A DNA stretch of 41,592 bases from Occultella glacieicola (GCF_004353825.1 NZ_SMNA01000020.1:1-41592), one strand, 5' to 3'. Positions 146 to 28,805 are shown, counted from the stretch's first letter. Notes: generated by a model from the letters alone, not told the origin. Program-made: numbers and translations.

Positions 146-189
146 GTCGGGCTCCCTTGGGTTGGTGGCGTGGATGGTCCCCGCCGGCA

Positions 190-297
190 TTCCCGATAGG
201 CGGACAGCCCTGCCCGCGGCGTGTGTGTCAAGGGCGCCGGAGGCGCTTGCGAAGCCCTTGACTCACGCGCCGCGGGCTGGAGGATCAATGCTCGGGA
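190..297 (-). promoter_or_regulatory. Frpo/ssi-like ssDNA hairpin element, diverged copy E, upstream of the 46-aa/DUF4192 operon
   Basis: The stem gcccgcggcgtgtg..gtcaaggg / cccttgac..cacgcgccgcgggc encloses cgccGGAggcg. It shares CCGATAG.CGGA..CAGCC with the other copies. Confidence 0.65.
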
Positions 298-578
298 TTC
301 GACGTCTCGGATTGACCGGAGTCGGTCTTGGATGTGCGGCGCGTGCGCGCCGCCGTTGGGCGGCTGAGGCCGACCTTGCGCAGTTCTGCTTCGGTCCAGC
401 CGCGCTGGATCGCCTGCATCCAGGCTTTGCGGTGTTCGCTGCGGGCAGCGGTCAGGTTGGCTTCGGCGTTGGTGACGTTCTGGCTGCGGCGAACGAGTTC
501 GCGCACGGCCTCGACGCGCTTGTCCAGGAGCGACTGGATCTGGCTCTCGATGGCTGATGGAAGTTGGTCGTTGTCCAT
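285..578 (-). CDS. Hypothetical coiled-coil plasmid protein divergent from mobC
   Basis: 97-aa helical ORF (...AWMQAIQRGWTEAELRKVGL) with a basic tail, next to oriT. Confidence 0.75.
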   Translation of the reverse strand: MDNDQLPSAIESQIQSLLDKRVEAVRELVRRSQNVTNAEANLTAARSEHRKAWMQAIQRGWTEAELRKVGLSRPTAARTRRTSKTDSGQSETSNPEH

Positions 579-679
579 CGTCTGAGCCTAGGTCTCCGCG
601 ACCGACAGTCGCCGGACCTACGCACCTGTGGTGCGCGCCCCGTGTCGGAAGGCGACGTGCAGTATGCGGAGACCCAGAC

Positions 680-711
680 GGAGCAAGCTATACACTTAGC
701 ACGGCTAAGTG
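680..711 (-). other. oriT: Putative oriT: 8-bp inverted repeat plus MOBP-like nic site (TATAGCTTG^C, between 684 and 683)
   Basis: cacttagc-acg-gctaagtg (693-711) lies 5' of TAGCTTG^C on the minus strand, resembling RP4 TATCCTG^C and pC221 GCTTG^C. It is upstream of mobC. Confidence 0.7.
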
Positions 712-809
712 GCTCGTCCTCTCGACAGGTCGAGGCGGCCGGGACACACTGGTGGTGTGGTCCCCGCGTTGGGCGGGTTCGCTGCGCTGGGCTGAGGGGC
801 GGTGTAGGG

Positions 810-1208
810 ATGGGTGAGGAGTCGCCTGGTGGGCGCAGGTTCACGCGCCGTCGGCGTGCGAACGCGCCCGGTGGTCGGCAGCACCGTCACGAGGTGAAGG
901 TGACCCCGGAGGAAGAGGCGGTGCTGTTGCGCCTAGCGTTGGCGCAGGAGGTCACGGTGCCGCGGCTGTTGGTGGAGTCGGCGCTGGCGTCGGAGACGGG
1001 GGAGACGGCGACCGAGCGGCGCAACGCGATCGCGGAACTGTTCCGGGCGCACCGGTTGTTGGCGGCCATCTCGAACAATGTGAACCAGATGGCGAAGGCG
1101 ACGAACGCCACCGGTGAGGTGCAGGAGGACCTGGTGGAGACGCTGCGCGCGGTTCGTCGCACCGCTGGCCGTATTGACGAGGCGATTGACGGGTTGAGCC
1201 TGTCGTGA
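810..1208 (+). CDS. mobC: MobC relaxosome accessory protein (RHH)
   Basis: HEVKVTPEEEAVL...VPRLLVESAL...SNNVNQMAKATN motif; overlaps the relaxase start. Confidence 0.9.
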   Translation: MGEESPGGRRFTRRRRANAPGGRQHRHEVKVTPEEEAVLLRLALAQEVTVPRLLVESALASETGETATERRNAIAELFRAHRLLAAISNNVNQMAKATNATGEVQEDLVETLRAVRRTAGRIDEAIDGLSLS

Positions 1209-2911
1209 TGCCGAACGTCACGCGCGGTGACCGGATGGGTGGGCTGCTGGTCTACCTGGCCGGTCCGGGTCGTAGCAACGAGCACACGGAGCCGCACCTG
1301 GTGGGTGGTGACGCGGCGTTGATGGCGTGGCACAGCGAGGACGAGTTGAACCGTGATTCGGCGCTGGCGATCGCGCAGCATCTGGACCGGCCGCGGAAGG
1401 CGTTCGACGTCGAGGTGCCCCAGGGGCACGTGTGGCATTGCTCGTTGTCGATCCGGGCCGACGAGGGCCAGCTGACCGACGAGCGGTGGGGCGCGATCGC
1501 GGACGACTTTGTCCGCGAGATGGGTTTCGACGACAACGAGGGCACGAAGGCCCCGTGCCGGTGGGTTGCGGTGCGCCATGGCTTGTCCGCCGGCGGGAAT
1601 GATCACGTGCACCTGGCGGTGCAGCTGGTGCGTGAGGACGGCACGAAGGCGTCGGTGCATAACGATCACCAACGGGCGCAGCGGGCGGCCCGCGCGCTCG
1701 AGGTGCGGCACGGGTTGGAGCAGCTGGAGTCGGTCAAGACCGAGCGGGCCACCCGTGGCTTCGACCCGGCCGAGCGGGAGGCGCAGGGCCGGGCGCGAGC
1801 CCGGGCGAAGTACGAGCGCGACCGCACCCGGGGCGGGAGCCGTGGCCCGGCGTGGGCGTCTCTGCCGGCGGGGGAGCGGTCGGCGCTTGTGAGTGCACAG
1901 GCGCGCGCCGACGAGCCGCGACTGGCGCTGGCTCGGACGGTGCGCGGGTGCGCCACCTCGAGCGCAGATGAGGCGGAGTTCGTGCGACGGGTCCGGCGTG
2001 CCGGTGCGTTGCTGCGGCCGCGATTCGCGCAGGGGCGCACCGACGTCGTCACCGGGTACTCGGTGGCCGCGAGGCCCGAGCATGGGGAGCGCCCGATTTG
2101 GTACGGCGGCGGGCAGCTGGGCCGGGATCTGACGTTGCCGCGGTTGCGGTCCGAGTGGCCCGACAGCCCGACGAGCGCGAGCGATGCGGCCGCAGAGTGG
2201 ACTGCGGCTGGTCGCGGCCGGCGGGTGGTCGCACCGGGCCGGGAGAGCACCGCGCCGGACCCAGAACTGTGGGGTCGGCAGAACCAGGAGCTCAGCGCTC
2301 TCGTCGAGTGCTTGCGGTCGGTGCCGGTTGACGACCGGGACACATGGGCGACCGTCGCCCGTCAGACGGCGGGCGCTCTGGCGGCGTGGTCGAACGCCAC
2401 CGAGGAGGTGCCCGGCGATCTTGCTGCAGCGTCGGAGGCGTTGTCGCGGTCGGCGCAGACGTACCGGCGGACCGTGGCTCCTCAGAAGGCCGGCACAGTC
2501 GCGATCTCCGGTGCGGCGATGCTCCTGGCCAGCGCAGCCCGCGGCGGCCAGGGCACCGCAGCGCAGGCGGTGATGATCCGCCAGTTCCTACGCCTAGCTC
2601 AGGCCGTCCACGCGGCGTCTGTGGCAGCGCAGCAGACCAGGCAGGCGCAACTCCTGGCAGAAGACACCCGCGGGCGCCTGATGCGGATACGGGACGCGTT
2701 GCCGCGGCCGCAGGGGCAGGCCGGTGCAGCCACAGCGACCATCGAGACCGCGCCACCGCTCGCCCTCGAGGTCGAGGCCGTCGCGGCCCGCCAGCGCGCG
2801 AGCCAGGGTCACGACGCGACCAGGGCGACGTCGCCCCTGCCGAACAAGATCGAACCGAGCAGAGCACGTCAGAGCACAAAGCCGGGCGCAGATCGCGGAC
2901 CGGAACGATAG
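1205..2911 (+). CDS. Relaxase/mobilization nuclease (MOBP-type)
   Basis: N-terminal Tyr motif (LLVYL), HVWHCSLS and the HUH motif DHVHLAVQLVREDG; downstream of mobC. Confidence 0.92.
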   Translation: MMPNVTRGDRMGGLLVYLAGPGRSNEHTEPHLVGGDAALMAWHSEDELNRDSALAIAQHLDRPRKAFDVEVPQGHVWHCSLSIRADEGQLTDERWGAIADDFVREMGFDDNEGTKAPCRWVAVRHGLSAGGNDHVHLAVQLVREDGTKASVHNDHQRAQRAARALEVRHGLEQLESVKTERATRGFDPAEREAQGRARARAKYERDRTRGGSRGPAWASLPAGERSALVSAQARADEPRLALARTVRGCATSSADEAEFVRRVRRAGALLRPRFAQGRTDVVTGYSVAARPEHGERPIWYGGGQLGRDLTLPRLRSEWPDSPTSASDAAAEWTAAGRGRRVVAPGRESTAPDPELWGRQNQELSALVECLRSVPVDDRDTWATVARQTAGALAAWSNATEEVPGDLAAASEALSRSAQTYRRTVAPQKAGTVAISGAAMLLASAARGGQGTAAQAVMIRQFLRLAQAVHAASVAAQQTRQAQLLAEDTRGRLMRIRDALPRPQGQAGAATATIETAPPLALEVEAVAARQRASQGHDATRATSPLPNKIEPSRARQSTKPGADRGPER

Positions 2912-2925
2912 GGGAGGGGTCGACC

Positions 2926-3729: not shown

Positions 3730-3810
3730 CGGACCCCTCGGCTTGCAGGCGGCATCCTGTCCCAGACCAGGGGGCGCAGCCCAGGCTCGGCCGTGCCGCT
3801 TGGTCGAGGG

Positions 3811-4719
3811 TTACGGCGTGTTCCTAATCGCGCGCAGTCGCTTCCTCGAGGCGGGGGCGGGCGTCTTGGGGTTGGGGCTCGGGTTGGCGCGTCCGATGAG
3901 CTGGTACAAGTTGCGCACGCGGTCCCGCTCGTCCGCGTTGGCGCCTCGAGGCGTATCAAGCTTCTGCTTGGTGACACGTAGGAGCCGAAGGTCGATGAGC
4001 TCAGTCGTGCCTTTGGCTCGCATGGATGGGCTGATGCCGTACCAGGCGGGAAAGTTGGTGACGGACCACCATGCGCCACGTGTGGTGCTCTCCGGTTCGG
4101 CCAGGAGAATCAGCAGCATGGCGAGCGCGGGTGCGCTCATGCTCTGGATGTAGCCACGCCAGAGTCGGTCCGGAATCTGCAGGTACCAATCTTCGCGCTT
4201 TACACGCGGTCCGCTCGGAGGGGCATACGGGAGACCCGAGCCGTCTTCACGAAGCAACGTGATGACCGAGGCCTCCCCCCGGTTTGTCTCGACTTCGATC
4301 AACTTCATCTCTCTCAGACGCGCCATGGCATCCGTCACGCGTCGAGCGCCGAGGCGGGAGGGATCATCAAGGTCGAGCAGCTCAGCCCACCGTCGAGCCG
4401 ACAGGTCGGTGGTGTACGGCTCCGCTGAGCTGCGCCGCAACAGACCCAGGTACACCTTCAGTGCTACACGGCCACCACGCCCGCGCGTTGAGACAATCCG
4501 AGTCAGCGGAGGAGGGGTCATGGGATCGTCGGTCCGCACGAAGGCCTTGCGAACGGGGGTGGTGGTACGGCGTGTACTTGAGCCGAGCAGCCATTGGACC
4601 TCTTCCTGTGCCCGCGGACGCAAGGCCGGCGCGACCTCTTTCGCCCTTGTTCGCGCGACGGTCCCTTTGTGTCGTCGCGATGAACTTGATGCCCTCTCTA
4701 CTTCGCTCATCTGAGGCAC
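3811..4719 (-). CDS. Hypothetical protein with tandem winged-HTH-like domains
   Basis: 302-aa ORF with ARRWAELLDL...RRVTDAMARLREMKLIEV and YGISPSMRAKGTTELIDLRLLRV. The start may be 4710. Confidence 0.75.
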   Translation of the reverse strand: MPQMSEVERASSSSRRHKGTVARTRAKEVAPALRPRAQEEVQWLLGSSTRRTTTPVRKAFVRTDDPMTPPPLTRIVSTRGRGGRVALKVYLGLLRRSSAEPYTTDLSARRWAELLDLDDPSRLGARRVTDAMARLREMKLIEVETNRGEASVITLLREDGSGLPYAPPSGPRVKREDWYLQIPDRLWRGYIQSMSAPALAMLLILLAEPESTTRGAWWSVTNFPAWYGISPSMRAKGTTELIDLRLLRVTKQKLDTPRGANADERDRVRNLYQLIGRANPSPNPKTPAPASRKRLRAIRNTP

Positions 4720-5812: not shown

Positions 5813-6152
5813 CCGGGGCGTAGGCGCCTCGTCCGCGATTCCACCCAAGCCGCATCTGAGTGCTGGATGACGCACCAACCTGTAAGCAGGTCTCGGCGTG
5901 CCCGCGCGGGCCTGGGTGGGGGGGACCTACCGGCAGTCGCTGCGGCCGTACCCGCTTGGCGGGCATCCGAACGAGCACATCGGTCCGCTGTCGTCGGGCC
6001 TCGCGGACCAGGATGACCGGTCCGACGCGTGGGCGCTCACCGTATGGCTGGCAGCACGTTCGATCTTGCTTGTCGGGCCTTCATGATTGGCTCCGGTGCG
6101 CGCTTCCGAGCAGGTAGCGTGCTTGACGACCCGCAAAGACGACGAGGATGCA

Positions 6153-8117
6153 GTGGATAACCTGGACGACTTGGAACTTCTGAGCAAGGACGAGCTCATC
6201 GCGATGCTCCACGAGCGGGCTGAGGCCGGTGTCAAGTTGTCTTTTCCGGGCAAGGCACTGGCGAGGCGCATCTCGCGCAAGGTTCGCCCCCATGTCCAAC
6301 GGACTGTGGCGAAGTACAGCGCCGGCTCCGAGGCCGAGCAGGCCCGCAACCTCTTGATCGAGGGCGACAACCTACAGGCGCTGGTCACCCTTTACCGCGA
6401 GCGTGGTCACGTCGACCTGATCCTGACCGATCCGCCGTATAACACCGGCAACGACTTCCGGTACAACGACAAGTGGGATCACGACCCCAACGACGCCGGG
6501 ATTGGTGACATCGTCTCGGCCGACGATCGGGCCAAGCACACCAAGTGGATGAAGTTCATGTTCCCTCGTCTACGGCTGATGAAGCAGATGCTCAAGCCGA
6601 GTGGGGTCCTCGCGATCTGCATCGACCATCGTGAGCTCTTCCACCTGGGCCAGATGCTCGACGAGATCTTCGGTGAACAGAACCGCCTCGCGATCATCAA
6701 CTGGCAGAAGATCACCTCGCCGAAGAACCACGATCAGGGCGTGTCGACGGCGACCGAGTATGTGCTCGTCTACGCCAAGAACGACGAGGCCGTCAGCACC
6801 GGCAGGATCCGTCGCTCGGACAAAACTGCCGCCGGCTACGTGAATCCCGACTCTGATCCTCGAGGGGCTTGGGCGCCTTCGGACTCCACTTTGATGGGCG
6901 CCTCAACCCACCCAGGACAGGTCTACGGGATCCAGAACCCTTTCACCGGACGGCTCCACTATCCCCAGGAGGGGCGGTGTTGGCGCAATGAACGCAGAAA
7001 GATGAAGGCCGCGGTTGAGGAGTGGGGTGTCACCTACGAGGACCGGGATCTGGACGATGGGCTACGGCCGGCGCTGCTGATCAAGGGTGCCCGCAATCCG
7101 CTCACTGAGGACTACGCGAGCGACGCGGTCGTCGCGGCCGCGCAGGAGAAGGCTCTTGCCGTCCGATCCCAGGACTGGCCCCGTTACTTCTGGCGCAACG
7201 ATCAGCGTCGCAGGCCTGGTCATGGTGAGCTCCGGTACAAGACCTACCTCGAGGAGGTAGCGGGCGGCGTCGTGCCCACGACTTTCTGGGCCTCCACCGA
7301 GGAGACCCAAGAACTCGAGCTCGGATCGATTTCTTGGCCACACAAGGAATCAGGTACCAGCGAGATTGGCGTCCGTGAACTCAACGCCGTCGTCGGCCGT
7401 GGCCATGGCTTTGACACCGTCAAGCCGATGAAACTCATCCAAAAGATCGTGCAGCTCTGGTGCCCGCCGGACGGCACCGTGGTCGACCCCTTCGCAGGCT
7501 CCGGGACGACCGGCCATGCCGTCTTGGCTCTAAACCAGACCGAGGGCGCGCGTCGACGCTTCATCCTCATCGAGCAGGGGCGCCCCGAGAAGGGCGATTC
7601 CTACGCCCGCTCGCTCACCGCCGACCGGCTCGCACGGGTGATCAGCGGTGATTGGGCCGACGGCAAGGGCAGCCCGCTGCCCGGCGGGTTCGAGTTCCGG
7701 CAACTCACGAAGCGTGTCGATGCACAGGCACTGCTCCAGATGGAACGTGAAGAGATGGTTGACACCGTCGTGTCCTCCTACTTCGACTCCTCAAGGCGTC
7801 GCGGACCAAACCTCGAGCGATGCGCCGACCGCAGTTACTCGTACTTGGTGGCCAAGAACGCCGACGATGAGGGGTTCTACCTGGTCTGGGACGGGCCCGA
7901 CCAGAACACCGACTTCACCGAGGATGTGTGGGAGGCATGCGTCCAGGAGGGCGAGCAGGCCAACCTGAAGCCTAAGTACCACGTGTACGCCCGGTTCAAC
8001 CTGTTTCCGACAACGGGTGTGCATTTCTACCAGATCCCGGACCGGATCCTGGCTGACTTTGGACTCGACGTGCGAACGGACTCCTACGCCGAGGATGACG
8101 AGGAGGACCAGGAGTGA
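6153..8117 (+). CDS. mod: Site-specific adenine DNA methyltransferase, type III Mod-like (beta class)
   Basis: NLLIEGDNL and DPPYN (motif IV) precede VDPFAGSGTTGHA (motif I). GTG at 6153 has a GAGGA RBS. Confidence 0.92.
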   Translation: MDNLDDLELLSKDELIAMLHERAEAGVKLSFPGKALARRISRKVRPHVQRTVAKYSAGSEAEQARNLLIEGDNLQALVTLYRERGHVDLILTDPPYNTGNDFRYNDKWDHDPNDAGIGDIVSADDRAKHTKWMKFMFPRLRLMKQMLKPSGVLAICIDHRELFHLGQMLDEIFGEQNRLAIINWQKITSPKNHDQGVSTATEYVLVYAKNDEAVSTGRIRRSDKTAAGYVNPDSDPRGAWAPSDSTLMGASTHPGQVYGIQNPFTGRLHYPQEGRCWRNERRKMKAAVEEWGVTYEDRDLDDGLRPALLIKGARNPLTEDYASDAVVAAAQEKALAVRSQDWPRYFWRNDQRRRPGHGELRYKTYLEEVAGGVVPTTFWASTEETQELELGSISWPHKESGTSEIGVRELNAVVGRGHGFDTVKPMKLIQKIVQLWCPPDGTVVDPFAGSGTTGHAVLALNQTEGARRRFILIEQGRPEKGDSYARSLTADRLARVISGDWADGKGSPLPGGFEFRQLTKRVDAQALLQMEREEMVDTVVSSYFDSSRRRGPNLERCADRSYSYLVAKNADDEGFYLVWDGPDQNTDFTEDVWEACVQEGEQANLKPKYHVYARFNLFPTTGVHFYQIPDRILADFGLDVRTDSYAEDDEEDQE

Positions 8118-10438: not shown

Positions 10439-10462
10439 GCGCCCACGACCTTTGCGCGAGGC

Positions 10463-17761: not shown

Positions 17762-17807
17762 CTGTCCTCTCCTCTTCGTGGATCGGTTCGAAGGTCGGTT
17801 GGGTTGT

Positions 17808-18083: not shown

Positions 18084-18097
18084 TGCGGTTGTTCTCC

Positions 18098-21781: not shown

Positions 21782-21907
21782 GACAACCCCCCGGCCCCGT
21801 CGTCGCATACAACCACACCGCCGCGACACCCCACAGTGGCGGGCATTTGCGTCTCGGGCGCCGTGCGCGTACCGAGTGATCAAGGTGAGCCTCCCTGGTA
21901 GGTGCGA

Positions 21908-22111
21908 GGTGATCGTTCTGCCCCCGTCACTTCCGATAGCCGGAGGCAGCCAGCGGGTCCGAGGGCCCTGTCCAGGGTCGAGCGGAGCTCGATCACGCAG
22001 TGACGCCGCAGGCGCCCTTGACTGGGCCCTCGGACCCGTTGAACCCTCAAAGGCCGGATGACGGGGGCAAAGCCCCCGGGACAACACAGCACCGGCCCAC
22101 AGGGCCGGTAC
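21908..22111 (-). promoter_or_regulatory. Frpo/ssi-like ssDNA hairpin element, copy D (inverted), upstream of the tra operon
   Basis: Reverse complement of 25403..25607 with 2 substitutions and 1 indel. Confidence 0.8.
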
Positions 22112-22154
22112 CGCCGTCTCCCCCGTCCCATCCATGTCGGCCACCCCCAGAACC

Positions 22155-22212
22155 CTGAAACACAATCAGTGTGTTTCAGACAGTACCCCAACGAAGCACA
22201 TTAAGTGTGTTT
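22155..22212. promoter_or_regulatory. Two palindromic operators AAACACA-N5-TGTGTTT
   Basis: ctgaaacaca-atcag-tgtgtttcag (22155-22179, perfect) and aagcaca-ttaag-tgtgttt (22194-22212), between the divergent tra operon and the ArsR-like gene. Confidence 0.65.
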
Positions 22213-22270
22213 AGATGAGGTGAGGCGGGATGCCAGGACTGTCAGAGGCCGACTCGGGCAAGATGGGCAC

Positions 22271-22600
22271 GTGCCTGCCTACGTCCAACCGCCGCTGCCG
22301 GAGACCGTGGAGATGGCCATTGAAGCGTTCGGGAACCGCGTGCGAGTGGCGATCCTTGCCCATCTCGCCAAGACCGACGCGGCAACCAGCCGAGAGATCG
22401 CCGATGCCCTCGACCTCTCCATCCGGCCGGCACAACGGCACGTGTGGTACCTCGAGGAGATCGGGCTGGTCGACGTCGACCAGCCGGGCGGTGACCGCCG
22501 CGGGACGCGGCCGCGGTACTCACTCAACCGGCGCGCGGCGACACGGCTCTACGAGGAGCTTGGGCAGTACATCGGGCTCAGCGAACCCCCACAGCGCTGA
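22271..22600 (+). CDS. ArsR/SmtB-like winged-HTH transcriptional regulator
   Basis: FGNRVRVAILAHL...SREIADALDLS...HVWYLEEIGLV...RYSLN. Confidence 0.85.
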   Translation: MPAYVQPPLPETVEMAIEAFGNRVRVAILAHLAKTDAATSREIADALDLSIRPAQRHVWYLEEIGLVDVDQPGGDRRGTRPRYSLNRRAATRLYEELGQYIGLSEPPQR

Positions 22601-22685
22601 CGCGCGGATTAGAGCGCGCATAGGGCGACACGCCGCCAGTCTGCGCCTCCCGCGACGTAACAGTTTGATTCGCCAGGATGTACCC

Positions 22686-22928
22686 ATGGTGCGCAAACGA
22701 CATGGCGGCGGGCAGCCGCACAAGGGTGATCGTCGCCTCCTGGCCGCTCGAGTGCCGCGGTCCCAGGCGGATGAGGTCGAGAGACGAGCCGATGCGCTCG
22801 GACTCTCCATCAGCGAGTACATCGCGAGCGTCCTGGTCCAGCACGTGGCCACCACGGACTCCCCTGCCAACGCGCAGGGCGAACTACTGACGATCCGAGA
22901 GGAGATGCGCCTGAACCAAAGCGCATAA
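22686..22928 (+). CDS. CopG/RHH-family DNA-binding protein upstream of rep
   Basis: KGDRRLLAARVP...ADALGLSISEYIASVL ribbon-helix-helix pattern. Confidence 0.78.
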   Translation: MVRKRHGGGQPHKGDRRLLAARVPRSQADEVERRADALGLSISEYIASVLVQHVATTDSPANAQGELLTIREEMRLNQSA

Positions 22929-22945
22929 CTCCACACAAAAGCGAA

Positions 22946-22967
22946 GGCCGGCCCTTACGGGCCGGCC
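22946..22967. terminator. GC hairpin; the U-rich tail is on the minus strand
   Basis: ggccggccc-ttac-gggccggcc, preceded by caaaagcgaa. Confidence 0.5.
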
Positions 22968-23053
22968 CGGTATCCGAAGCTATTCACCCTCTTTGCTTGG
23001 CGGCGGGGCGGTGAGTAGCTCAGACCGACACACCCTGAGGCGTGTCCTAACGC

Positions 23054-24334
23054 TTGGAGCACACCATACCTCCCGCGTCAGCATCCCCGCTAGTTTCCGG
23101 CGACCCCACGCGCCCGCGTGTCGCGGCGCCCTCGCGGCGCCGGCGAACAAGCCGACTCCGCGAGCGTGCACCGTTGGCGATCGCTACAGCCGTGCCCCAC
23201 GGCTCGCACAGACTGCGCCGCCTCAGCCAGTTTGTGGCCCTCGTCGACCAACGGGCCGACGAGGCCAACGTGCGCGTCGACCGCGCCCAGACGCTCCACC
23301 GAGTCGCCCTGGCGCTCCTCGAACGTGCCCGCGCCGACGGCACGTCAATGCCGACCTGGGCACACCTACAGGCTCGAGCCGGCCGCTCCCGAGCGACCGT
23401 AGCTCGAGCCCTCGCCACACTCGAGGCCTGGGGCCTACTAGGCGTCGTCTCCACCGGACGACGCGGCGTATGCGCACCCGGAGGATCCCTGAGCCGCCGC
23501 AAGGTCCCCGCCCGCGCAGTCCCAGCCATGAACGGACCCAACGACCCCCGCAACGAGGCCGCGGTCTACGTCCTCTGCGAGGTCTCACCCCTGCACCTGG
23601 TCACCGACGACGACCAGGTCAACCCGCACCCGCCCCACCTGCCTGTGAATACAAATGAGACCCCTCCCCCGGTAGGGGTTGGTCTTGCCCCCCGCACACA
23701 CGCGCGCGAAGACTCTCGAACCCAAACGGAGCCGCTCCGCGGCACCGACCCTCTGGCCGCTCCGCGGCCGCCACAGCGAGCCGCTTGGCGACACGTCCCA
23801 CTGTGGCCAAGCTCCGTAACGCCAAGCGGCAAGGACAACATGCTGCGCGCTGCCGCCGAGCTGCAACGCCGCCTCCCGGCGTTACGCACCATCACCGACC
23901 GCCACATCCGCTCCATCCTGCGCGAATTCTTCCTCGCCGGCTGGACCGTCGGAGACGTCATCCTCGCCATCGACCAACGCCCCAACAACGCACACTGGCA
24001 CCACGACGGCGCCACCGGAGTCGGCAACACCGGCGCCTGGCTCACCCACCGACTACGCCCCTGGCGCACCACCGACGGCGTCGTGCGAGTCTCCCCCAGC
24101 CAACGCGCCGCAGCCACACACGCGGAGAACCGCGCCAGGCAGGCAGCTCGGCGCCAAGCCGAAGCAAACGACCGGGCACTACGTCACGCAGACGGCCGGC
24201 ACGACCAGGCCCGAGACCGAGTCAAGGCCTGGTGGGACGCCTTCCGAACCGGACGCACCAACGCCCGCTCCCCCGAGGAATACCTCGACGCTGAACAACA
24301 AACCGAAGGCTGCGGCGATGCGCAACAGAACTGA
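23054..24334 (+). CDS. Putative plasmid replication initiator (HTH-containing Rep)
   Basis: PTWAHLQARAGRSRATVARALATLEAWGLLGVV HTH, NEAAVYVL and FFLAGWT...AID; follows the RHH gene. Start codon uncertain. Confidence 0.65.
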   Translation: MEHTIPPASASPLVSGDPTRPRVAAPSRRRRTSRLRERAPLAIATAVPHGSHRLRRLSQFVALVDQRADEANVRVDRAQTLHRVALALLERARADGTSMPTWAHLQARAGRSRATVARALATLEAWGLLGVVSTGRRGVCAPGGSLSRRKVPARAVPAMNGPNDPRNEAAVYVLCEVSPLHLVTDDDQVNPHPPHLPVNTNETPPPVGVGLAPRTHAREDSRTQTEPLRGTDPLAAPRPPQRAAWRHVPLWPSSVTPSGKDNMLRAAAELQRRLPALRTITDRHIRSILREFFLAGWTVGDVILAIDQRPNNAHWHHDGATGVGNTGAWLTHRLRPWRTTDGVVRVSPSQRAAATHAENRARQAARRQAEANDRALRHADGRHDQARDRVKAWWDAFRTGRTNARSPEEYLDAEQQTEGCGDAQQN

Positions 24335-24338
24335 TACC

Positions 24339-24605
24339 TCACGCCCGCTCGACCGCGTTCGCCCACACCCACACCTCCTCGGTCCGGTCGTGCTCATCGA
24401 CCAGGCGCACCCGCACCGCCCGAGGCGTCCACGCCGTCGCCAGGCCATCAGTGCGCACCACACCCACGCGGGGCCGGCTCACCCAGACCTGCACCGCGAT
24501 CGGAGCCCGAGGCTCGGTCATAGGCCCCCCAAGCGCCCCCATCGGAAGCGACTCAGCCGCAGCCCGCAGCGGCACCCGCTCCGGATGCCTACCCTCCCCA
24601 GTCAT
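24339..24605 (-). CDS. Small hypothetical beta-rich protein, probably leaderless and SOS-controlled
   Basis: ATAWTPRAVRVR...VWVWANAVER; TAGACT -10 box 6 nt before the ATG. Confidence 0.7.
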   Translation of the reverse strand: MTGEGRHPERVPLRAAAESLPMGALGGPMTEPRAPIAVQVWVSRPRVGVVRTDGLATAWTPRAVRVRLVDEHDRTEEVWVWANAVERA

Positions 24606-24615
24606 CCAACAAGTC

Positions 24616-24631
24616 TAGAACATCCGTTCGT
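24616..24631 (-). promoter_or_regulatory. LexA (SOS) box
   Basis: Minus strand ACGAAC-GGAT-GTTCTA versus the actinobacterial consensus TCGAAC-N4-GTTCGA; it overlaps the edge of the -10. Confidence 0.7.
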
Positions 24632-24729
24632 GCGACCGGTCCGAATCAGCATTCTCCCCCCGCCGCTCAACCGGCAACTATCCACAGACCATCACCAGGG
24701 CATGGCGCCCCCTGGCGCCACGGACCAAG

Positions 24730-25224
24730 ATGGATCGCGTGGAAACAAACCACCGGCCACCCGCCGAACCTCAAGGACGAGGCAAGTCGTGCGCCGTGAT
24801 CGACTGCGACCGCAAACTCTTCGCCCGAGGCCTATGCCAAATGCACTGGCAACGCACCCGCCGCGGCCGCCCGCTCCTCGCCCCCGTCCAGATGCACCAC
24901 GCCGGCGAGATCCAGGAATGCACCATCTGCGGCGCCCAATGGTGCCGAATGCCCGCCAACACCTCCACCAGACGCACCTGCTCGAGCACCTGCCGCGCCC
25001 AGCTCATCTCCCAGAAAGCCCAGCAGCGAAGCGACACCAGCAGGGACACCGCGATCCTCGAGCTCGCCCGCCAAGGAATCCCCTACCCAGTCATCAGTGC
25101 GCAATACGACATCGGCGCCGCGCGAGTCCGACAGATCGCCACCGCCGCGGGGATCAGGCGATACCAAGAACGACAACAAGACGACGAACGCGGGGACCAC
25201 ACGGAACACCCGCAACACCAGTAA
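24730..25224 (+). CDS. Zinc-finger plus HTH hypothetical regulator
   Basis: C-x4-C...C-x2-H and CxxC...CSxxC, then RDTAILELARQGIPYPVISAQYDIGAARVRQI (HTH). Confidence 0.72.
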   Translation: MDRVETNHRPPAEPQGRGKSCAVIDCDRKLFARGLCQMHWQRTRRGRPLLAPVQMHHAGEIQECTICGAQWCRMPANTSTRRTCSSTCRAQLISQKAQQRSDTSRDTAILELARQGIPYPVISAQYDIGAARVRQIATAAGIRRYQERQQDDERGDHTEHPQHQ

Positions 25225-25252
25225 TGCACGCAACACACGCAACGAAGCGAAC
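25199..25252 (+). repeat. 9-bp phased repeat array (consensus about RCACGCAAC), 6 units
   Basis: acacggaac|acccgcaac|accagtaat|gcacgcaac|acacgcaac|gaagcgaac. Confidence 0.7.
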
Positions 25253-25402
25253 GGCAGAAGCGGAAGCATCATCAACGCGACGTCGCGGCTCCCGCGGCCA
25301 GGCGAACTACGCGCACAGCCGCCATAGGCGCCAGCGTCTGCGCACTCCGACCCAAGCCCCGTAGCCGGTCACCAAGGCGCGATCGAACCCGAAACCCGAG
25401 TA

Positions 25403-25607
25403 GTACCGGCCCTGTGGGCCGGTGCTGTGTTGTCCCGGGGGCTTTGCCCCCCGTCATCCGGCCTTTGAGGGTTCAACGGGTCCGAGGGCCCAGTCAAGGG
25501 CGCCTGCGGCGTCACTGCGTGATCGAGCTCCGCTCGACCCTGGACAGCACCCTCGGACCCGCTGGCTGCCTCCGGCTATCGGAAGTGACGGGGGCAGAAC
25601 GATCACC
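25403..25607 (+). promoter_or_regulatory. Frpo/ssi-like ssDNA hairpin element, copy A, upstream of the ParB-like gene
   Basis: Nested stems ccccgtca/tgacgggg, cgggtccgaggg/ccctcggacccg and gtcaaggg/ccctggac enclose three small hairpins. Confidence 0.8.
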
Positions 25608-25618
25608 CCAAAGCAGTT

Positions 25619-25645
25619 ACGCGCAACGCACGCAACACACACAAC
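25619..25645 (+). repeat. 9-bp repeat array (3 units) immediately before the RBS
   Basis: acgcgcaac|gcacgcaac|acacacaac|aggagg. Confidence 0.75.
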
Positions 25646-25655
25646 AGGAGGAACC

Positions 25656-26996
25656 ATGACCGACACCGGAACCCTCACCCACGTGGCCCCGGCCACGCTC
25701 ACCATCGAGACGAACGTCCGCAGCGACGCCGACCTCGACAAAGCATTCGTGGACTCGATCCGCCAGCACGGCGTGCTGACACCCATCATCGCGATCGCCC
25801 ACGAGGACGGAACCCTGCACGTGCGCGCAGGACAACGCCGGACCCTCGCAGCCATCGAGGCAGGCCTCGACACCATCCCCGCCTACATCGTCCCCGCAGG
25901 CGACGACGCAGACCGGCTCGTCGAGCAGATCGTCGAGAACGACCAACGACGCACGCTCAGCGACGCAGACCGCACCGCAGCCTGGGAACAACTCGCAGTA
26001 CTCGGACTCAGCGCCGCGCAGATCGCAAAGCGAACCGGACACGGCCGCAAAGACGTCCAAACCGGCCTCACCGTCGCCGAGAGCGCCGCAGCCAAGCACG
26101 CACTCGCCACCCATGACCTGACCCTCGCCCAGGCCGCCGTCCTAGCCGAGTTCGAGGACGACACCGACACCCTCGAGGCCCTGACCAACATCGCCATCAC
26201 CGAACCCGGGCAGTTCGACCACACAGCCCAACGCGCCCGCGACGACCGCGACGCGCAAGCGGCCGCGCAAGCCGAAACGGCCAGGCTCACCGAGGCAGGC
26301 GTCACCCTCCTCACCGAACGCCCCGCCTGGGACTCCGAGTTGAAGGACCTCAGCGGCTACCGCCCCGCAAAGAGCGAATACGGAGCAGCGATCGACCCGG
26401 CCGACTACTACGACAACCCCGACCTACGCGCCCACGTGCGAGCAGGATGGCGCGGCGAGGTCGAAGTCACCTACTACCTGCCCACGCCCAAGAAGCACGG
26501 CCTCATCGACCGGCACGCCACCTCCAACGCGAGCACCACCGGGCCGATGACCGAGGAACAGAAGGCCGAACGTCGCGAACTCATCGCCAACAACAAGGCC
26601 TGGAAATCCGCCGAAACCGTCCGGCGCGAGTGGCTCACCACGTTCGCCACCCGCAAGACCAGCCCCAAGGACGCAGCCCAGTTCGTGGCCAACAGCCTCG
26701 TCAGCAACAACTACGCGCTCGACAAGGCTGCAACCCAAGGCCACCGACTCGCCCGCCAGCTGCTCGGCCTGGCCGAGTCCACCGGATACGGCGACCGGAG
26801 CCTCAACGACACCATCGCCAAGGCCTCCCCCGCCAGAGCCGCGCACATCACCCTCGTCCTGGTGCTCGCCGCCATCGAGGACAACACCGGAGTACACACC
26901 TGGCGCAACGCCACCGACACCGACTACTTCGCCGCACTCACCCGCTGGGGCTACACCCTCAGCGACGTCGAGCAACTCACCCAACAACCCCACTGA
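25656..26996 (+). CDS. ParB N-terminal-domain protein (ParB/RepB/Spo0J-like, long form)
   Basis: NVR, SIRQHGVLTPI, AGQRRTLAA, VENDQR and an HTH; AGGAGG RBS. Confidence 0.9.
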   Translation: MTDTGTLTHVAPATLTIETNVRSDADLDKAFVDSIRQHGVLTPIIAIAHEDGTLHVRAGQRRTLAAIEAGLDTIPAYIVPAGDDADRLVEQIVENDQRRTLSDADRTAAWEQLAVLGLSAAQIAKRTGHGRKDVQTGLTVAESAAAKHALATHDLTLAQAAVLAEFEDDTDTLEALTNIAITEPGQFDHTAQRARDDRDAQAAAQAETARLTEAGVTLLTERPAWDSELKDLSGYRPAKSEYGAAIDPADYYDNPDLRAHVRAGWRGEVEVTYYLPTPKKHGLIDRHATSNASTTGPMTEEQKAERRELIANNKAWKSAETVRREWLTTFATRKTSPKDAAQFVANSLVSNNYALDKAATQGHRLARQLLGLAESTGYGDRSLNDTIAKASPARAAHITLVLVLAAIEDNTGVHTWRNATDTDYFAALTRWGYTLSDVEQLTQQPH

Positions 26997-27004
26997 CACG
27001 CGCA

Positions 27005-27031
27005 GGTGACCGGCCCGACGGGCCGGTCACC
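27005..27031 (+). terminator. Hairpin after the ParB-like gene
   Basis: ggtgaccggccc-gac-gggccggtcacc. Confidence 0.6.
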
Positions 27032-27077
27032 CCGCCCCATCGGCGGCCGGCTGGCGCCGGCCCGGGCCAAGCGCGGA

Positions 27078-27265
27078 ACCGGCCCGTGGGCCGGTGCTGT
27101 GCTGTGCCGGCGGCTACGCCCCCGTCATCCGGCCTCTGACCATCCAACGCGTCACCCGCACGGTCAAGGGCGCCTACGGCGTCACTGGCGTGATCGAGCT
27201 CCGCTCGACCCTGGACAGTGCGGCCGCCACGACGGCTGCCTCCGGCTATCGGAAGTGACGGGGGG
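27078..27265 (+). promoter_or_regulatory. Frpo/ssi-like ssDNA hairpin element, copy B, upstream of ardC
   Basis: Same core with a compensatory stem (ccgcac/gtgcgg). Confidence 0.8.
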
Positions 27266-27286
27266 AACGCGATAACCCAACCAGTT

Positions 27287-27322
27287 ACGCGCAACACACG
27301 TAACGCCCGCAACGTACGCAAT
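27287..27322 (+). repeat. 9-bp repeat array (4 units) before the ardC RBS
   Basis: acgcgcaac|acacgtaac|gcccgcaac|gtacgcaat. Confidence 0.75.
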
Positions 27323-27333
27323 CCGGAGGAACC

Positions 27334-28227
27334 ATGGCCCGCAAGATCAAGAACACCAAGAGCACCGAAGAACGCCAGGCCGAAGCCGCCGCACTACACG
27401 CCTTGATCGTGGATCAGGTCGAGATCCTGCGTGACTCCGAGGCATGGACCCGCTTCCTCGACTTCGCCCAGGCATTCCACCGCTACAGCATCAACAACTT
27501 GTTGTTGATCCTCGCTCAGAAGCCCCACGCAACCCACGTCGCCGGCTACGGGACGTGGCAGAAGCTCGGACGCCAGGTCCGCAAAGGAGAAGGCGGCCCC
27601 AACGCCATCCGGATCTACGGCGGCCGCGACATCGTGACCACCGAGGAAGACGCGAACACCGGCGAGCAGAAGGAGCAACGCCGAACACGGTTCTTCCCCG
27701 TGTCGGTGTTCGACATCTCCCAGACCGAGGCCAAGGACCCCGAGGCCGAGGAGCCCGGCACCATCGCCCGCCGCCTCACCGGGGACGACCCGCTAGGCAT
27801 CGCGGACGCGGTCACCGACTACCTCACCGACCGTGGGTGGACCGTCGAGCGCGAGCCGATCCCCGGCGAAACCAACGGCTACACCACCACCGACGGCACC
27901 CGCCGCGTCGTCATCGACGCAAACCTCTCCCCCGCACAGGCTGCCAAGACCGCCCTGCACGAAGCCGCGCACGTCATCATGCACGCCGACCAGGACCCGG
28001 CCGAGATCGCACAGCACCGAGGCATCAAAGAGACAGAAGCCGAGAGCGTCGCCTACATCGTGGCCGGGATCCACGAACTCGACACCAGCGCCTACAGCAT
28101 CGGCTACGTCGCCCGATGGAGCAACGCAGACGCCGAGACCATCAAGGAGACCGCCTCACGCGTGCTGCGCACCGCACACACCCTCGCCGAAGCCATCACC
28201 GAACCGGCCCAAACCGAAGCCGCCTGA
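27334..28227 (+). CDS. ardC: ArdC-like antirestriction protein (ssDNA-binding domain plus zincin metallopeptidase)
   Basis: YSINNLLLI..Q...VAGYGTWQKLGRQVRKGE, VFDISQT, HEAAH and ETEAESVAY. Confidence 0.88.
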   Translation: MARKIKNTKSTEERQAEAAALHALIVDQVEILRDSEAWTRFLDFAQAFHRYSINNLLLILAQKPHATHVAGYGTWQKLGRQVRKGEGGPNAIRIYGGRDIVTTEEDANTGEQKEQRRTRFFPVSVFDISQTEAKDPEAEEPGTIARRLTGDDPLGIADAVTDYLTDRGWTVEREPIPGETNGYTTTDGTRRVVIDANLSPAQAAKTALHEAAHVIMHADQDPAEIAQHRGIKETEAESVAYIVAGIHELDTSAYSIGYVARWSNADAETIKETASRVLRTAHTLAEAITEPAQTEAA

Positions 28228-28240
28228 CGATGTCGGCATT

Positions 28241-28276
28241 ACACACAACACCCGTAATGCGTGCAACACACACAAC
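28241..28276 (+). repeat. 9-bp repeat array (4 units) before the RBS
   Basis: acacacaac|acccgtaat|gcgtgcaac|acacacaac|aggagg. Confidence 0.75.
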
Positions 28277-28286
28277 AGGAGGAGCC

Positions 28287-28547
28287 ATGCTCACCACCGA
28301 CCAGATCATCGAGCGCATGCGAAGCAACCGGCTCGGCCGGGCCTACCTCGCCGAACATGGCGCCGGCCCCGGGGGAGAGCGCTTCGCCGCCTGGCTCTTC
28401 GAACTCGACGCGCGCCTGGCCCGCACCCTGCGCATCGCACGAGGGCACCAGCAGCTCGCCGACCGCGACTGGCTCGCCGAGTTCGAGGCCGGCACCGCTC
28501 CAGCCCAAGCAGCAACGAACGCCCTCAGCGAAGAGTTCGGCCCTTGA
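28287..28547 (+). CDS. Hypothetical protein (86 aa)
   Basis: AGGAGG RBS; MLTTDQIIERM...LADRDWLAEFEAG. Confidence 0.75.
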   Translation: MLTTDQIIERMRSNRLGRAYLAEHGAGPGGERFAAWLFELDARLARTLRIARGHQQLADRDWLAEFEAGTAPAQAATNALSEEFGP

Positions 28548-28615
28548 AGCGCCCCACCGGCGGTCGGGTGGCCTGAACAAGGACCAAGGCCCGGCGGCCT
28601 CGCCGCCGTGGCGGA

Positions 28616-28805
28616 ACCGGCCCGGTGGGCCGGTGCTGTGTCTTCTCGGTGGCTACGCCCCCGCCATCCGGCCTTTGAGGATCCATCACGGACCGTCCGC
28701 GCGGTCAAGGGCGCCTGCGGCGTCACTACGTGATCGAGCTGCGCTCGACCCTGGACAGCACTACCGGCCGCAACGGCTGCCTCCGGCTATCGGAAGTAAC
28801 GGGGG
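28616..28805 (+). promoter_or_regulatory. Frpo/ssi-like ssDNA hairpin element, copy C, upstream of the nrdH-like gene
   Basis: Same core: gtcaagggcgcctgcggcgtcactacgtgatcgagctgcgctcgaccctggacag. Confidence 0.8.

Follow-up and report, generated by a model that had tools for sequence, protein, structure and literature searches.

Five copies of a hairpin element on an Occultella glacieicola plasmid

The window considered here is a whole contig of 41,592 bp from a plasmid of Occultella glacieicola. Toward its left end, a mobC-like gene and a gene for a MobA/VirD2-type relaxase occupy positions 564 to 2911 on the plus strand (the true mobC start may lie near 810), together with a candidate oriT core at 664 to 720, given here without a strand, in which an invariant 18-nt block adjoins an inverted repeat, CACTTAGC/GCTAAGTG (693 to 711), whose pairing is preserved in a related plasmid through a compensatory change. 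A tra operon encoding an M23 peptidase, AAA ATPases, a DUF6668 protein, a T4CP, and a DUF4913 protein occupies 10466 to 21883 on the minus strand. Further along, on the plus strand, come a gene for a ParB_N-domain protein (25656 to 26996; PF02195, E = 1.3e-9), an ardC-like gene with ArdcN and Peptidase_M78 domains (27334 to 28227), and, at 28851 to 29602, an nrdH-like glutaredoxin gene (28851 to 29072) followed by an ssb ORF.

The original prediction had placed copies of a long nested hairpin in front of the ParB-like gene, ardC, nrdH-ssb, and the tra operon, with a fifth, diverged copy elsewhere, and the sequence, BLAST, and a covariance model bore out all five locations and the genes that follow them. 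In what follows, "sense" denotes the strand that reads toward the downstream gene in copies A to C and "antisense" denotes its template strand. Copy A (25405 to 25607, plus strand) lies upstream of the ParB_N gene and has its four-way-junction core at 25493 to 25545; copy B (27078 to 27278, plus strand; core, 27163 to 27216) lies upstream of ardC, and copy C (28616 to 28805, plus strand; core, 28704 to 28756) lies upstream of nrdH-ssb. Copy D (21908 to 22111, minus strand; core, 21970 to 22022) points toward the first gene of the tra operon, which starts near 21883; an HTH gene at 22205 lies in its antisense direction. Copy E (179 to 307, minus strand; core, 227 to 262) is short, and the next gene in its direction is a short minus-strand ORF. 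A terminator-like hairpin opens each of copies A to D (at 25405 to 25423 in copy A; the one flagged in copy C is at 28616 to 28634). With copy A as the query, BLAST of its own genome returned copies A (100%), D (99%, on the opposite strand), C (84%), and B (82%), all on this contig, and a covariance model built from A to D recovered copy E at 179 to 307 on the minus strand (41.8 bits, E = 6.7e-7), confirming that D is inverted and E is diverged.

The hairpin is 110 to 200 bases long across the five copies. It is closed by the stem GTCAAGGG/CCCTKGAC and contains three inner hairpins (two in copy E), whose loops read TGC, TAC, or TCC on the gene-sense strand, that is, GCA, GTA, or GGA on the template strand; hairpin 2 of copy B has a 4-nt loop, TGGC (GCCA on the template strand). 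This is the architecture that had been described, and the compensatory stem changes described with it are present but modest, both-sided changes being found at 4 of 53 pairs. Copy A folds significantly better than shuffled sequences, with z values for the two strands of -5.9 and -5.5 with DNA parameters and -4.1 and -4.9 with RNA parameters, and none of 200 shuffles folded as well.

The element belongs to a family dispersed through the Actinomycetota

A covariance model built from the copies was proposed as a means of finding an actinobacterial family, and its search did so. We collected the family sample with a core pattern and the model built from the plasmid's own copies, so the invariance of the core is uninformative; we estimate that the strict core pattern occurs in ~1400 stretches of genome_contigs. 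Among 72,556 plasmids, full-length BLAST matches were confined to Actinomycetota, and the hits in Escherichia, Klebsiella, and Acinetobacter covered at most about half of a 60-nt query with E values of 1 or more, as expected by chance. Copies also occur in chromosomes, in AICEs, in a rolling-circle plasmid, and beside DUF222 and IS110 genes. The family is phylum-wide and dispersed rather than private to plasmids. When we asked whether it is a known noncoding RNA, Rfam gave no match in the 41,592-bp stretch at gathering thresholds and only two tRNAs in 16 other loci at E <= 0.1, and we found no description of the family in Rfam or in the literature searched.

The element lies upstream of co-oriented ardC genes or small-gene arrays in Kocuria pCE7, a K. 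rhizophila plasmid, and two Rhodococcus antarcticus plasmids and upstream of ssb in three of the four loci that hold this gene; at locus L186, ssb is found on the antisense side. Family-wide, a crude gene caller placed the nearest downstream gene in the same orientation as the element in 31 cases and in the opposed orientation in 29 and called none in 37, and a frame-bias method gave 25 co-oriented and 19 opposed genes. At this resolution, there is no gene bias downstream of the element. The nearest upstream gene, called with the same crude tool, was co-oriented in 52 cases and opposed in 21. Housekeeping genes flank many chromosomal copies, and the promoter-like motif described below is still present there (25/34). 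Single-stranded DNA (ssDNA) between chromosomal housekeeping genes is expected only during replication, and such copies stay unexplained by a reading of the element as an ssDNA promoter.

The template strand is under selection to fold

Three independent tests, based on G:T wobbles, stability, and triloops, were used to ask which strand folds. The first is alignment-free and anchored at the core and takes spacer positions 6 to 22 in both arms of each element. Within elements, there were 1102 Watson-Crick pairs, 171 pairs that are G:T on the antisense strand only, 26 that are G:T on the sense strand only, and 282 mismatches, whereas arms taken from different elements as a control gave 515, 190, 114, and 761, respectively; the spacers themselves are diverse, with 81 distinct ones among 93 elements and a mean identity of 0.34. 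In the second test, the antisense strand was the more stable one in 61 of 77 full-length elements, by a mean of 3.4 kcal/mol (DNA parameters) compared with 0.6 in dinucleotide shuffles (p ~1e-8). Third, the core triloops mostly read TNC (217 of 264) on the sense strand, which makes them GNA on the antisense strand, and a C:G pair closes 242 of the 264; triloops of the GNA type are stable in DNA. All three tests support the conclusion that the template (antisense) strand is the one under selection to fold. In an alignment of the wider family fitted to the model, both-sided changes occurred at 47 of 53 pairs, and 91.8% of cells were paired, compared with 66.7% in shuffles, none of 500 of which scored as high; pair counts on the model-fitted alignment were mixed as to strand, with 140 G:T to 117 A:C overall and an opposite tendency in the outer helices.

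The folded strand has a promoter-like geometry

One arm of the folded strand had been predicted to carry TTGAC(T/C)-N16-19-RANNNT, and all five copies do so on the arm of the template strand. On the minus strand, copy A has TTGACT at 25497 to 25492, an 18-nt spacer, and AACCCT at 25473 to 25468, with a predicted start near an unpaired TAT at 25577 to 25579; copy B has TTGACC at 27167 to 27162, a 17-nt spacer, and GATGGT at 27144 to 27139; and copy C has TTGACC at 28708 to 28703, a 19-nt spacer, and GATCCT at 28683 to 28678. On the plus strand, copy D has TTGACT at 22018 to 22023, an 18-nt spacer, and AACCCT at 22042 to 22047, and copy E has TTGACT at 258 to 263, a 16-nt spacer, and GAGGAT at 280 to 285. 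As in Frpo-like elements, the -35 and -10 boxes are in this way rebuilt on the template strand of the downstream gene.

Across the family, NANNNT follows TTGACN by 16 to 19 nt on the antisense arm of 64 of 93 elements (42 of 60 after dereplication), compared with 0 to 11 of 93 at control offsets and 11 of 93 (7 of 60) on the sense arm, the spacer being 17 nt in 33 elements, 16 in 22, 18 in 8, and 19 in 1. In the predicted fold, TTGAC and the spacer are paired and the -10-like hexamer lies in an internal loop, the mean pairing probability being ~0.7 to 0.9 at positions 6 to 22, 0.33 to 0.49 at positions 23 to 29, and 0.75 to 0.84 at positions 33 to 39. The motif GCTA[TC] peaks at template-arm positions 34 to 36 (25 of 93 elements), which would coincide with the position where a start site is expected, and RNA from such a folded-strand promoter is predicted to head toward the downstream gene. 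The usual actinobacterial -10 box is TANNNT, whereas the first base of the hexamer is T in only 2 of the 64 cases. The 29 elements without NANNNT at a spacer of 16 to 19 nt include four of the seven DUF222-linked copies.

Orientation in rolling-circle replicons

Model matches were found at only 7 of 80 RepSA AICE loci, all 7 on the strand opposite repSA, and the same orientation is seen at a further RepSA locus (L189) and in the Rep_1 (PF01446) plasmid pPA43082, the folding strand being the rep-sense strand in nine of nine rolling-circle cases. In pPA43082, the element (4318 to 4458) lies just upstream of rep, which starts at 4626, and the rep-sense strand carries GNA loops and TTGGCG-N17-GACACT. 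The rep-sense strand is presumably the one displaced in rolling-circle replication. A position upstream of rep or the double-strand origin and a single orientation in these replicons are what is expected of a single-strand origin (sso), and this identity of orientation is supported by all the cases. RNA made from the element would be transcribed in the direction opposite to the rep operon here, consistent with a role as primer.

The transferred strand and copies D and E

As a usual rule, the relaxase gene is the last to enter the recipient (Samuel 2024). From this rule, and from the orientation of ardC, ssb, and the parB-like gene, which run around the plasmid in the relaxase gene's direction, as they do in plasmid F, we infer that the T-strand is the minus strand. 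Copies A to C are 12 to 16 kb distant from the candidate oriT, on the flank that does not hold the relaxase gene. The folding strand of copies D and E is then the presumed nontransferred strand. In Glutamicibacter plas-AT6, Miniimonas pS16-2, and Paenarthrobacter pYJND-1, the only copy is of the E type and lies near oriT in the order element, small ORF, oriT, mobC, relaxase, in synteny with copy E and likewise with its folding strand the presumed nontransferred one. Copies A to D are absent from close relatives of the O. glacieicola plasmid and are probably additions specific to its lineage. The location of D, E, and the near-oriT copy of the relatives is not explained by a promoter acting on the T-strand. 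Such a two-strand layout had been thought to be without precedent, which was too strong a claim, since pSN22 reportedly has three ssos distributed over both strands (by the title of a paper cited in PMC11600335).

The element as a probable ssDNA promoter and priming signal

The selection on the folding strand, the geometry of the motif, and the orientation in rolling-circle replicons all fit the ssDNA promoter/primer family of the original prediction; its further parts, reading by sigma-A RNA polymerase and roles in producing mRNA and primers, are ones that we infer. Our preferred reading, with a probability of about 0.6, is that the element would act in the manner of Frpo or an sso, as a promoter in ssDNA and as a signal for priming. 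Once single-stranded, the strand that is template for the downstream gene would fold back on itself, with nucleation perhaps at the apex, where three c-GNA-g mini-hairpins form a four-way junction; one arm would provide a paired -35 box (TTGAC), a 16- to 19-bp spacer, and an unpaired -10-like NANNNT, and the host sigma-A RNA polymerase would read the folded structure, likely starting on the other arm and proceeding into the downstream gene. Such a promoter, already open in the predicted fold, would be active only as ssDNA and would likely start the RNA both for early genes and for second-strand priming. On a T-strand entering the recipient, it may yield mRNA for the parB-like gene, ardC, and nrdH-ssb, as with Frpo, and in rolling-circle plasmids and AICEs, its RNA may prime complementary-strand synthesis, as with an sso. 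The unit of ~130 to 220 nt would have spread among actinobacterial mobile elements and chromosomes.

Judging by its title, a 1997 paper by Masai and Arai ascribes both a transcription and a priming function to an Frpo-type element. In Frpo, a stem-loop restores the -35 and -10 boxes, and ssb and further leading genes are expressed from the single-stranded form (Couturier 2023; Samuel 2024). With Frpo and ssi of F and ColIb-P9, our element shares a long imperfect hairpin with rebuilt -35 and -10 boxes (on the T-strand in Frpo), a placement upstream of ssb, antirestriction, and ParB-like genes, here putative leading genes, that have the rotational sense of the relaxase, and the presence of several copies per plasmid. 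It differs in its size (~150 to 200 nt, compared with ~310 nt for the F hairpin upstream of ssb), in its apex, a four-way junction of three triloop mini-hairpins, in the lack of T at position 1 of the -10-like hexamer, and in its occurrence in rolling-circle replicons, in chromosomes, and on both plasmid strands. No homology to Frpo or ssi at the BLAST threshold of Samuel 2024 (E <= 1e-6) was found in 72,556 plasmids queried with the element or its core.

With ssoA- and ssoU-type ssos and with sso1 of ICEBs1, the element shares a folded, orientation-specific ssDNA signal upstream of rep or the double-strand origin (as in pPA43082) and a position on the rep-sense strand (9/9), a likeness of fold and placement. 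At ssoA, RNA polymerase makes the primers. For the Streptomyces sso set (pIJ101, pJV1, and pSN22), the model gave no credible hit in pIJ101, the best one with filters off reaching 19 bits over the generic outer stem only, and, unlike the ssos of rolling-circle replicons, the element also precedes genes on a conjugative plasmid. The minus-strand origin of M13/fd offers a similar case, in which promoter-mimicking hairpins of the packaged strand allow the host RNA polymerase holoenzyme to synthesize a short primer; that origin, however, belongs to a phage of Proteobacteria and has two hairpins, no junction cap, and no gene-expression role. Initiation signals on both strands of one replicon are found in RSF1010 (ssiA and ssiB) and, reportedly, among the pSN22 ssos, but those of RSF1010 are read by the plasmid primase within oriV, do not mimic promoters, and do not stand before operons.

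Alternative explanations

The strongest of the alternatives, although an unlikely one, is that the element is a selfish MITE- or REP-like palindrome whose strand-specific fold serves its own movement via an ssDNA intermediate, the promoter-like motif being a recognition feature or by-product and the plasmid copies being insertions. It would account for a discrete unit of ~130 to 220 nt at whose ends homology between loci stops and the flanks are unrelated, for 95% identity over 173 nt between copies inside one genome, for neighbors as mixed as housekeeping genes, DUF222 genes (element upstream and co-oriented in six of seven), and IS110-family genes (three loci), for the absence of A to D from close plasmid relatives, and for a patchy distribution (4 of 100 other genomes). 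Yet no partner enzyme travels alongside: neither the O. glacieicola genome nor 223 neighboring ORFs at 53 loci contained a match to the Y1 HUH transposase (PF01797), which argues against membership in IS200/IS605-type or REP/RAYT families; none of the eight DUF222 loci of that genome carries the element; and no target-site duplications are visible at copies A to D. Movement also leaves unexplained the 16- to 19-nt distance between TTGAC and NANNNT, the unpaired hexamer, and the nine-of-nine rep orientation. Mobility and ssDNA-promoter function are, in any case, compatible.

We think it improbable that the element is an initiation signal for DnaG primase, the PriA primosome, or a plasmid primase, with structural motifs and no mRNA. 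The rolling-circle orientation and position would suit any sso or ssi type, three tandem hairpins resemble a G4-type origin, T is rare at the first position of the hexamer, and the orientation of downstream genes is unbiased family-wide, but the spacing, mostly 17 or 16 nt, matches that of promoters, an invariant TTGAC in duplex and a hexamer whose A and T lie in a loop are also promoter-like, and the plasmid copies directly precede co-oriented genes. A structured RNA seems just as hard to credit, be it an antisense countertranscript or small RNA controlling the downstream leader or a sense 5'-untranslated-region or 3'-end element. The fold is significant with RNA parameters too, a terminator-like hairpin starts A to D, and the excess of co-oriented upstream genes (by the crude caller) is as for a 3'-end element; a sense RNA, however, is at odds with the wobble asymmetry of 171 to 26, and an antisense RNA needs a promoter in the downstream leader, whereas a strict sigma-70-type scan found no site for an ordinary promoter from 21700 to 29000, and in A to C it would enter the 3' end of the upstream gene. 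Moreover, the loops are nearly all DNA-stable GNA triloops and not GNRA or UNCG tetraloops, and Rfam gave no match. Finally, an ordinary duplex promoter or operator, in which TTGAC-N17-NANNNT fires antisense from double-stranded DNA or the palindrome binds a regulator, is very improbable, for although the HTH gene next to copy D and the ssb gene of L186 lie on the antisense side, the nearest antisense-side gene usually points toward the element (52 versus 21), compensatory changes and diverse arms indicate single-strand pairing rather than a protein site, and a duplex promoter would not account for an opposite arm that departs from pairing solely at the hexamer.

Beyond the ssDNA promoter and priming signal that we favor lies a broader and more doubtful possibility, that the family is a portable, phylum-wide promoter cassette, active only in ssDNA and read by the housekeeping RNA polymerase of actinobacteria, which mobile elements use wherever a defined strand becomes single-stranded. 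It would consist of a c-GNA-g four-way-junction cap, a duplex -35 box and spacer, and a premelted -10 box that, lacking its first T, would be silent in duplex DNA. It might serve as the sso of rolling-circle plasmids and AICEs, as a promoter on the transferred strand for zygotic induction of ardC, ssb, and parB-like genes, and, in the conserved near-oriT copy on the retained strand, as a primer for replacement-strand synthesis in the donor; in this plasmid, a retained-strand copy might also drive tra expression in the donor.

Five copies of a junction-bearing hairpin in a conjugative plasmid

The window is the entire contig C12 (41,592 bp, 67% G+C) of a 5.3-Mb host genome, and its gene content identifies it as a conjugative actinobacterial plasmid. 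A Pfam scan placed a mobC-like gene and a MobA/VirD2-type relaxase gene on the plus strand (564-2911), a long tra operon on the minus strand (10.4-21.9 kb; T4CP, DUF4913, AAA ATPases, DUF6668, and M23 peptidase), genes for HTH regulators and, again on the plus strand, a ParB_N gene (25656), an ardC-like gene (27334), and nrdH (28851), followed by ssb, parA, and a ParB_C gene. A short way past the relaxase gene, an N6/N4 DNA methylase gene precedes a 774-aa AAA-type gene (6087-10438); this pair recurs in the Glutamicibacter plasmid plas-AT6, where the annotation gives a methyltransferase and a DEAD/DEAH helicase.

The original prediction had described a five-copy hairpin family on this plasmid, and that observation is confirmed. 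Copies A (25405-25607), B (27078-27278), and C (28616-28805) on the plus strand and D (21908-22111) on the minus strand were all found where it had placed them, as was the diverged copy E, which a covariance model of A to D recovered at 179-307 on the minus strand (41.8 bits). All five are directed at the gene that follows them (the ParB_N gene, ardC, nrdH-ssb, the tra operon, and a short minus-strand ORF, respectively). BLAST against the organism's own genome returned only A (100%), D (99%), C (84%), and B (82%), all in C12. Its long imperfect arms and closing stem (GTCAAGGG/CCCTKGAC) lead to an apex at which three mini-hairpins abut (two in E) to make a four-way junction; copies A to D also have a terminator-like hairpin (that of C is flagged as such by a scan). 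The fold of copy A was far more stable than those of shuffled sequences on both strands and with both the DNA and the RNA parameter sets (z of -4.1 to -5.9).

Copies A and D form inverted repeats with 99% identity (25403-25607 and 21908-22111) that bound a 3.3-kb segment (22112-25402) carrying genes for HTH and GntR-like regulators. This could be an invertible segment or reflect recent gene conversion. The HTH gene and the M23 and AAA genes form one codirectional operon in plas-AT6 and in the Miniimonas plasmid pS16-2; in the window they diverge at D.

The element belongs to a large family

BLAST found relatives in plasmids of Kocuria, Rhodococcus, Glutamicibacter, Miniimonas, Paenarthrobacter, Pseudonocardia, and Streptomyces. 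The first pattern used genome-wide, TCAAGGGCGCCNNNGGCG, was too loose, with an estimated 21,000 matching stretches that were mostly chance matches in GC-rich genomes, and the covariance model recognized ~15 real copies among 100 sources (97 of them from the 122 loci of that scan). A stricter core pattern was put in its place, which matches an estimated ~1400 stretches in genome_contigs (extrapolated from 6 of 64 parts). We gave the model 95 of 122 strict-pattern loci (14 clearly nonactinobacterial loci and 13 others were omitted), and 85 of the 95 matched at E <= 1e-4. Homology between loci is restricted to ~130-220 nt, so that the element has the behavior of a portable unit. A second match in the Kocuria plasmid pCE7 (27879-27994) is a plain long hairpin and was excluded from the family because it lacks the junction core.

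No Rfam family matches the element, and the literature searched (open-access papers and bioRxiv) yielded no description of ssDNA promoters in Actinobacteria. In the large leading-region survey of Samuel et al. (2024), Actinobacteria and Actinomycetota have 0 occurrences. We found no description of this large family.

The antisense strand is the one that folds

We refer to the strand that reads toward the gene downstream of the element as the sense strand and to the template of that gene as the antisense strand. With DNA parameters, the antisense strand was the stabler one in 61 of the 77 full-length elements; RNA parameters gave 60 of 77. Its mean advantage of 3.4 kcal/mol (p about 1e-8) is not compositional, because shuffles gave 0.6 kcal/mol. 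The energy set used has no bonus for GNA loops. Among core triloops, 217 of 264 read TNC on the sense strand (TTC 89, TGC 70, TAC 34, TCC 24), which is GNA on the antisense strand, and the closing pair is C:G in 242 of 264; c-GNA-g hairpins are unusually stable in DNA.

The arms were compared without gaps, anchored at the closing stem, over the 17 positions after TTGACN. Arms of the same element gave 1102 Watson-Crick pairs and 282 mismatches, and of their G:T pairs, 171 can form only on the antisense strand and 26 only on the sense strand. The control pairing of arms from different elements gave 515 Watson-Crick pairs, 761 mismatches, and 190 antisense-only and 114 sense-only G:T pairs. Since the spacers themselves are diverse (81 distinct sequences in 93 elements, with a mean identity of 0.34), the arms covary strongly, and their wobble pairs pick the antisense strand. 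In a model-fitted alignment, both sides changed in 47 of 53 pairs, and 91.8% of the cells were paired, compared with 66.7% in shuffles and 35-48% in slid controls. Pair types in that alignment were mixed (140 G:T versus 117 A:C); these ambiguous counts weigh less, since alignment of the outer arms is poor, and were superseded by the ungapped comparison.

The folded strand has promoter-like geometry

On the antisense 3' arm, a -10-like hexamer (NANNNT) lies 16-19 nt past TTGACN in 64 of 93 elements, compared with 0-11 at control offsets and 11 on the sense arm; after dereplication at 70% arm identity, the counts were 42 of 60 for the antisense arm versus 7 of 60 for the sense arm. The spacer is 17 nt long in 33 elements, 16 in 22, 18 in 8, and 19 in 1. 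Family-wide, the hexamer has the consensus N-A-C-R-M-T and begins with T in only 2 of 64 cases, a near-absence that could prevent the motif from firing in the duplex. Mean pairing probability along the antisense arm is ~0.7-0.9 in the spacer, 0.33-0.49 at positions 23-29 (the hexamer span), and 0.75-0.84 by positions 33-39. The predicted antisense fold gives a duplex -35 region and spacer followed by an unpaired -10 region.

The arm opposite the motif would serve as the template and is contiguous with the template strand of the downstream gene, so that the RNA would run in the sense direction. GCTA[TC] peaks at template-arm positions 34-36 (25 of 93 elements), close to the expected start, and the corresponding TAT of copy A (25577-25579) is unpaired in the predicted antisense fold. 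Read in duplex DNA, the TTGAC/NANNNT motif would be directed away from the genes with which the element is associated, and a strict promoter scan of 21700-29000 found no ordinary promoter. The hexamer is kept at similar rates across contexts: 7 of 9 plasmid elements, 25 of 34 in other chromosomal settings, 8 of 14 next to mobile-element genes, and 3 of 7 next to DUF222 genes.

Copies A to C would fold on the probable T-strand

The T-strand had originally been assigned to the minus strand from the orientation of nic. Motif resemblance was not decisive on this point, since TAAGTG lies within an inverted repeat and so occurs on both strands. Three other points make this assignment the likely one: the relaxase gene is usually the last to enter (Samuel et al., 2024); ardC, ssb, and the parB-like gene share their rotational sense with the relaxase gene, as in plasmid F; and conservation within the candidate oriT is highest in a block flanking the inverted repeat on its relaxase-distal side. 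In this candidate oriT (664-720), an invariant block, CCCAGACGGAGCAAGCTA, adjoins an 8-bp inverted repeat whose pairing is kept in plas-AT6 through a compensatory change, and at about 770-800 comes a second palindromic block that is also conserved.

On this assignment, the strand entering the recipient would be the one on which copies A to C fold, and there they would drive expression of the parB-like gene, ardC, and nrdH-ssb. The element also precedes a co-oriented ardC in pCE7 and co-oriented arrays of small genes in a Kocuria rhizophila plasmid and two R. antarcticus plasmids. The leading region of plasmid F (L361, 7539-9497) has a ParB/RepB/Spo0J-family gene between ssb and psiB, which parallels the ParB_N gene after copy A.

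Elements in rolling-circle replicons

Plasmid pPA43082, on which the literature searched (open-access papers and bioRxiv) yielded nothing, carries a Rep_1 gene and an FtsK-like transfer gene. Its sole element (4318-4458; loops GCA/GTA/GCA; TTGGCG-N17-GACACT) is just upstream of rep and folds on the rep-sense strand. Among AICE loci retrieved with a RepSA query, the model matched in 7 of 80, in all seven on the strand opposite repSA and in six within ~1.1 kb downstream of it; five of the seven are from Frankia, and the matches are not independent. One further locus, L189, has the same orientation as these. If the rep-sense strand is the one displaced, as is usual in rolling-circle replication, the element has the position and orientation of a single-strand origin. 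In these replicons its RNA would be directed opposite to the rep operon, which fits a primer. The sti/sso of pIJ101 was rejected as a relative.

Copies D and E and their relatives

D and E fold on the strand opposite to that of A to C. Copy E is a degenerate member of a conserved type: plas-AT6, pS16-2, and Paenarthrobacter pYJND-1 share the order element, small ORF, oriT region, mobC, relaxase gene. The E-type copies of these relatives have a good hexamer (AATCAT or GATCCT, spacer 16) in an internal loop, and in plas-AT6 and pS16-2, both searched whole, the model found no other copy. As the relatives lack A- to D-type copies, copies A to D are recent additions. Donor synthesis in F requires a new RNA primer. 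RNA from an E-type copy on the retained strand would follow T-strand unwinding away from nic, a geometry that, speculatively, suits priming of donor replacement synthesis. Couturier et al. (2023) discuss ssDNA accumulation in donors.

Inverted pairs of elements 60-430 nt apart occur in Kribbella and Actinokineospora chromosomes, convergent at L176 (1955-2667) and L235 (255-925) and divergent at L165 (1961-2267), and may be a small-scale version of the two-strand layout.

Genomic neighbors and alternative partners

Gene contexts were counted with two crude callers, one a home-made GC3 method and the other based on frame bias; the ParB_N gene that follows copy A, for instance, was missed, and the resulting counts are weak evidence. 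The nearest downstream gene was about as often opposed to the element as co-oriented with it (31 co-oriented versus 29 opposed with the GC3 method, 25 versus 19 with frame bias). A Pfam scan of 223 neighboring ORFs at 53 loci returned a mixture of DUF222, ssb, RepSA with integrase, IS110, toxin or defense genes, and many housekeeping genes.

Where a DUF222 gene is a neighbor, the element lies upstream of it and co-oriented in 6 of 7 cases. As an obligate partner, DUF222 was rejected: the chromosome of the window's genome has 16 DUF222 matches, and 0 of 8 of these loci examined hold the element. A short subfamily with the junction core and an extra ~8-bp stem sits among housekeeping genes as an insertion, with a DUF222 gene 90-290 nt downstream (L137, L148, L149, L153, L157, and L170, from Spirillospora, Herbihabitans, and Actinomadura), and most of its copies are without the hexamer motif. 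A role as an IS110 bridge RNA was also rejected, because IS110 genes are near the element at only 3 loci and in inconsistent relative orientation. At L177, L192, and L007, the element is within 100-300 nt of the 3' end of an IS110-family transposase gene, at L007 inside the annotated coding sequence on the opposite strand. Mobilization of the IS200/IS605 type was rejected because no Y1 transposase was found in the window's genome.

The best reading and its implications

Fold, strand, and geometry together make an ssDNA promoter and priming signal, working like Frpo and a single-strand origin, the best reading of the element, as had been proposed; copies D and E and other contexts are left unexplained by it. 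We put its probability at about 0.6, because the whole case is built on sequence analysis and several contexts do not yet fit. The element differs from Frpo and the single-strand origins in sharing no sequence with them and in having its own architecture.

Promoters active on ssDNA explain how incoming plasmids express antidefense and SSB genes before they become double stranded, and to our knowledge the only sequences of such promoters come from enterobacterial plasmids. A family in Actinomycetota that is defined by both sequence and structure would be a searchable mark of which strand becomes exposed as ssDNA, and in which direction, in actinobacterial plasmids, AICEs, and ICEs. It would bring promoters of the Frpo type together with the single-strand origins of rolling-circle replicons in a single element. 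It would also supply a compact, testable model of a preopened promoter for sigma-A polymerase and would let the use of ssDNA signals on the retained strand be tested in donors.
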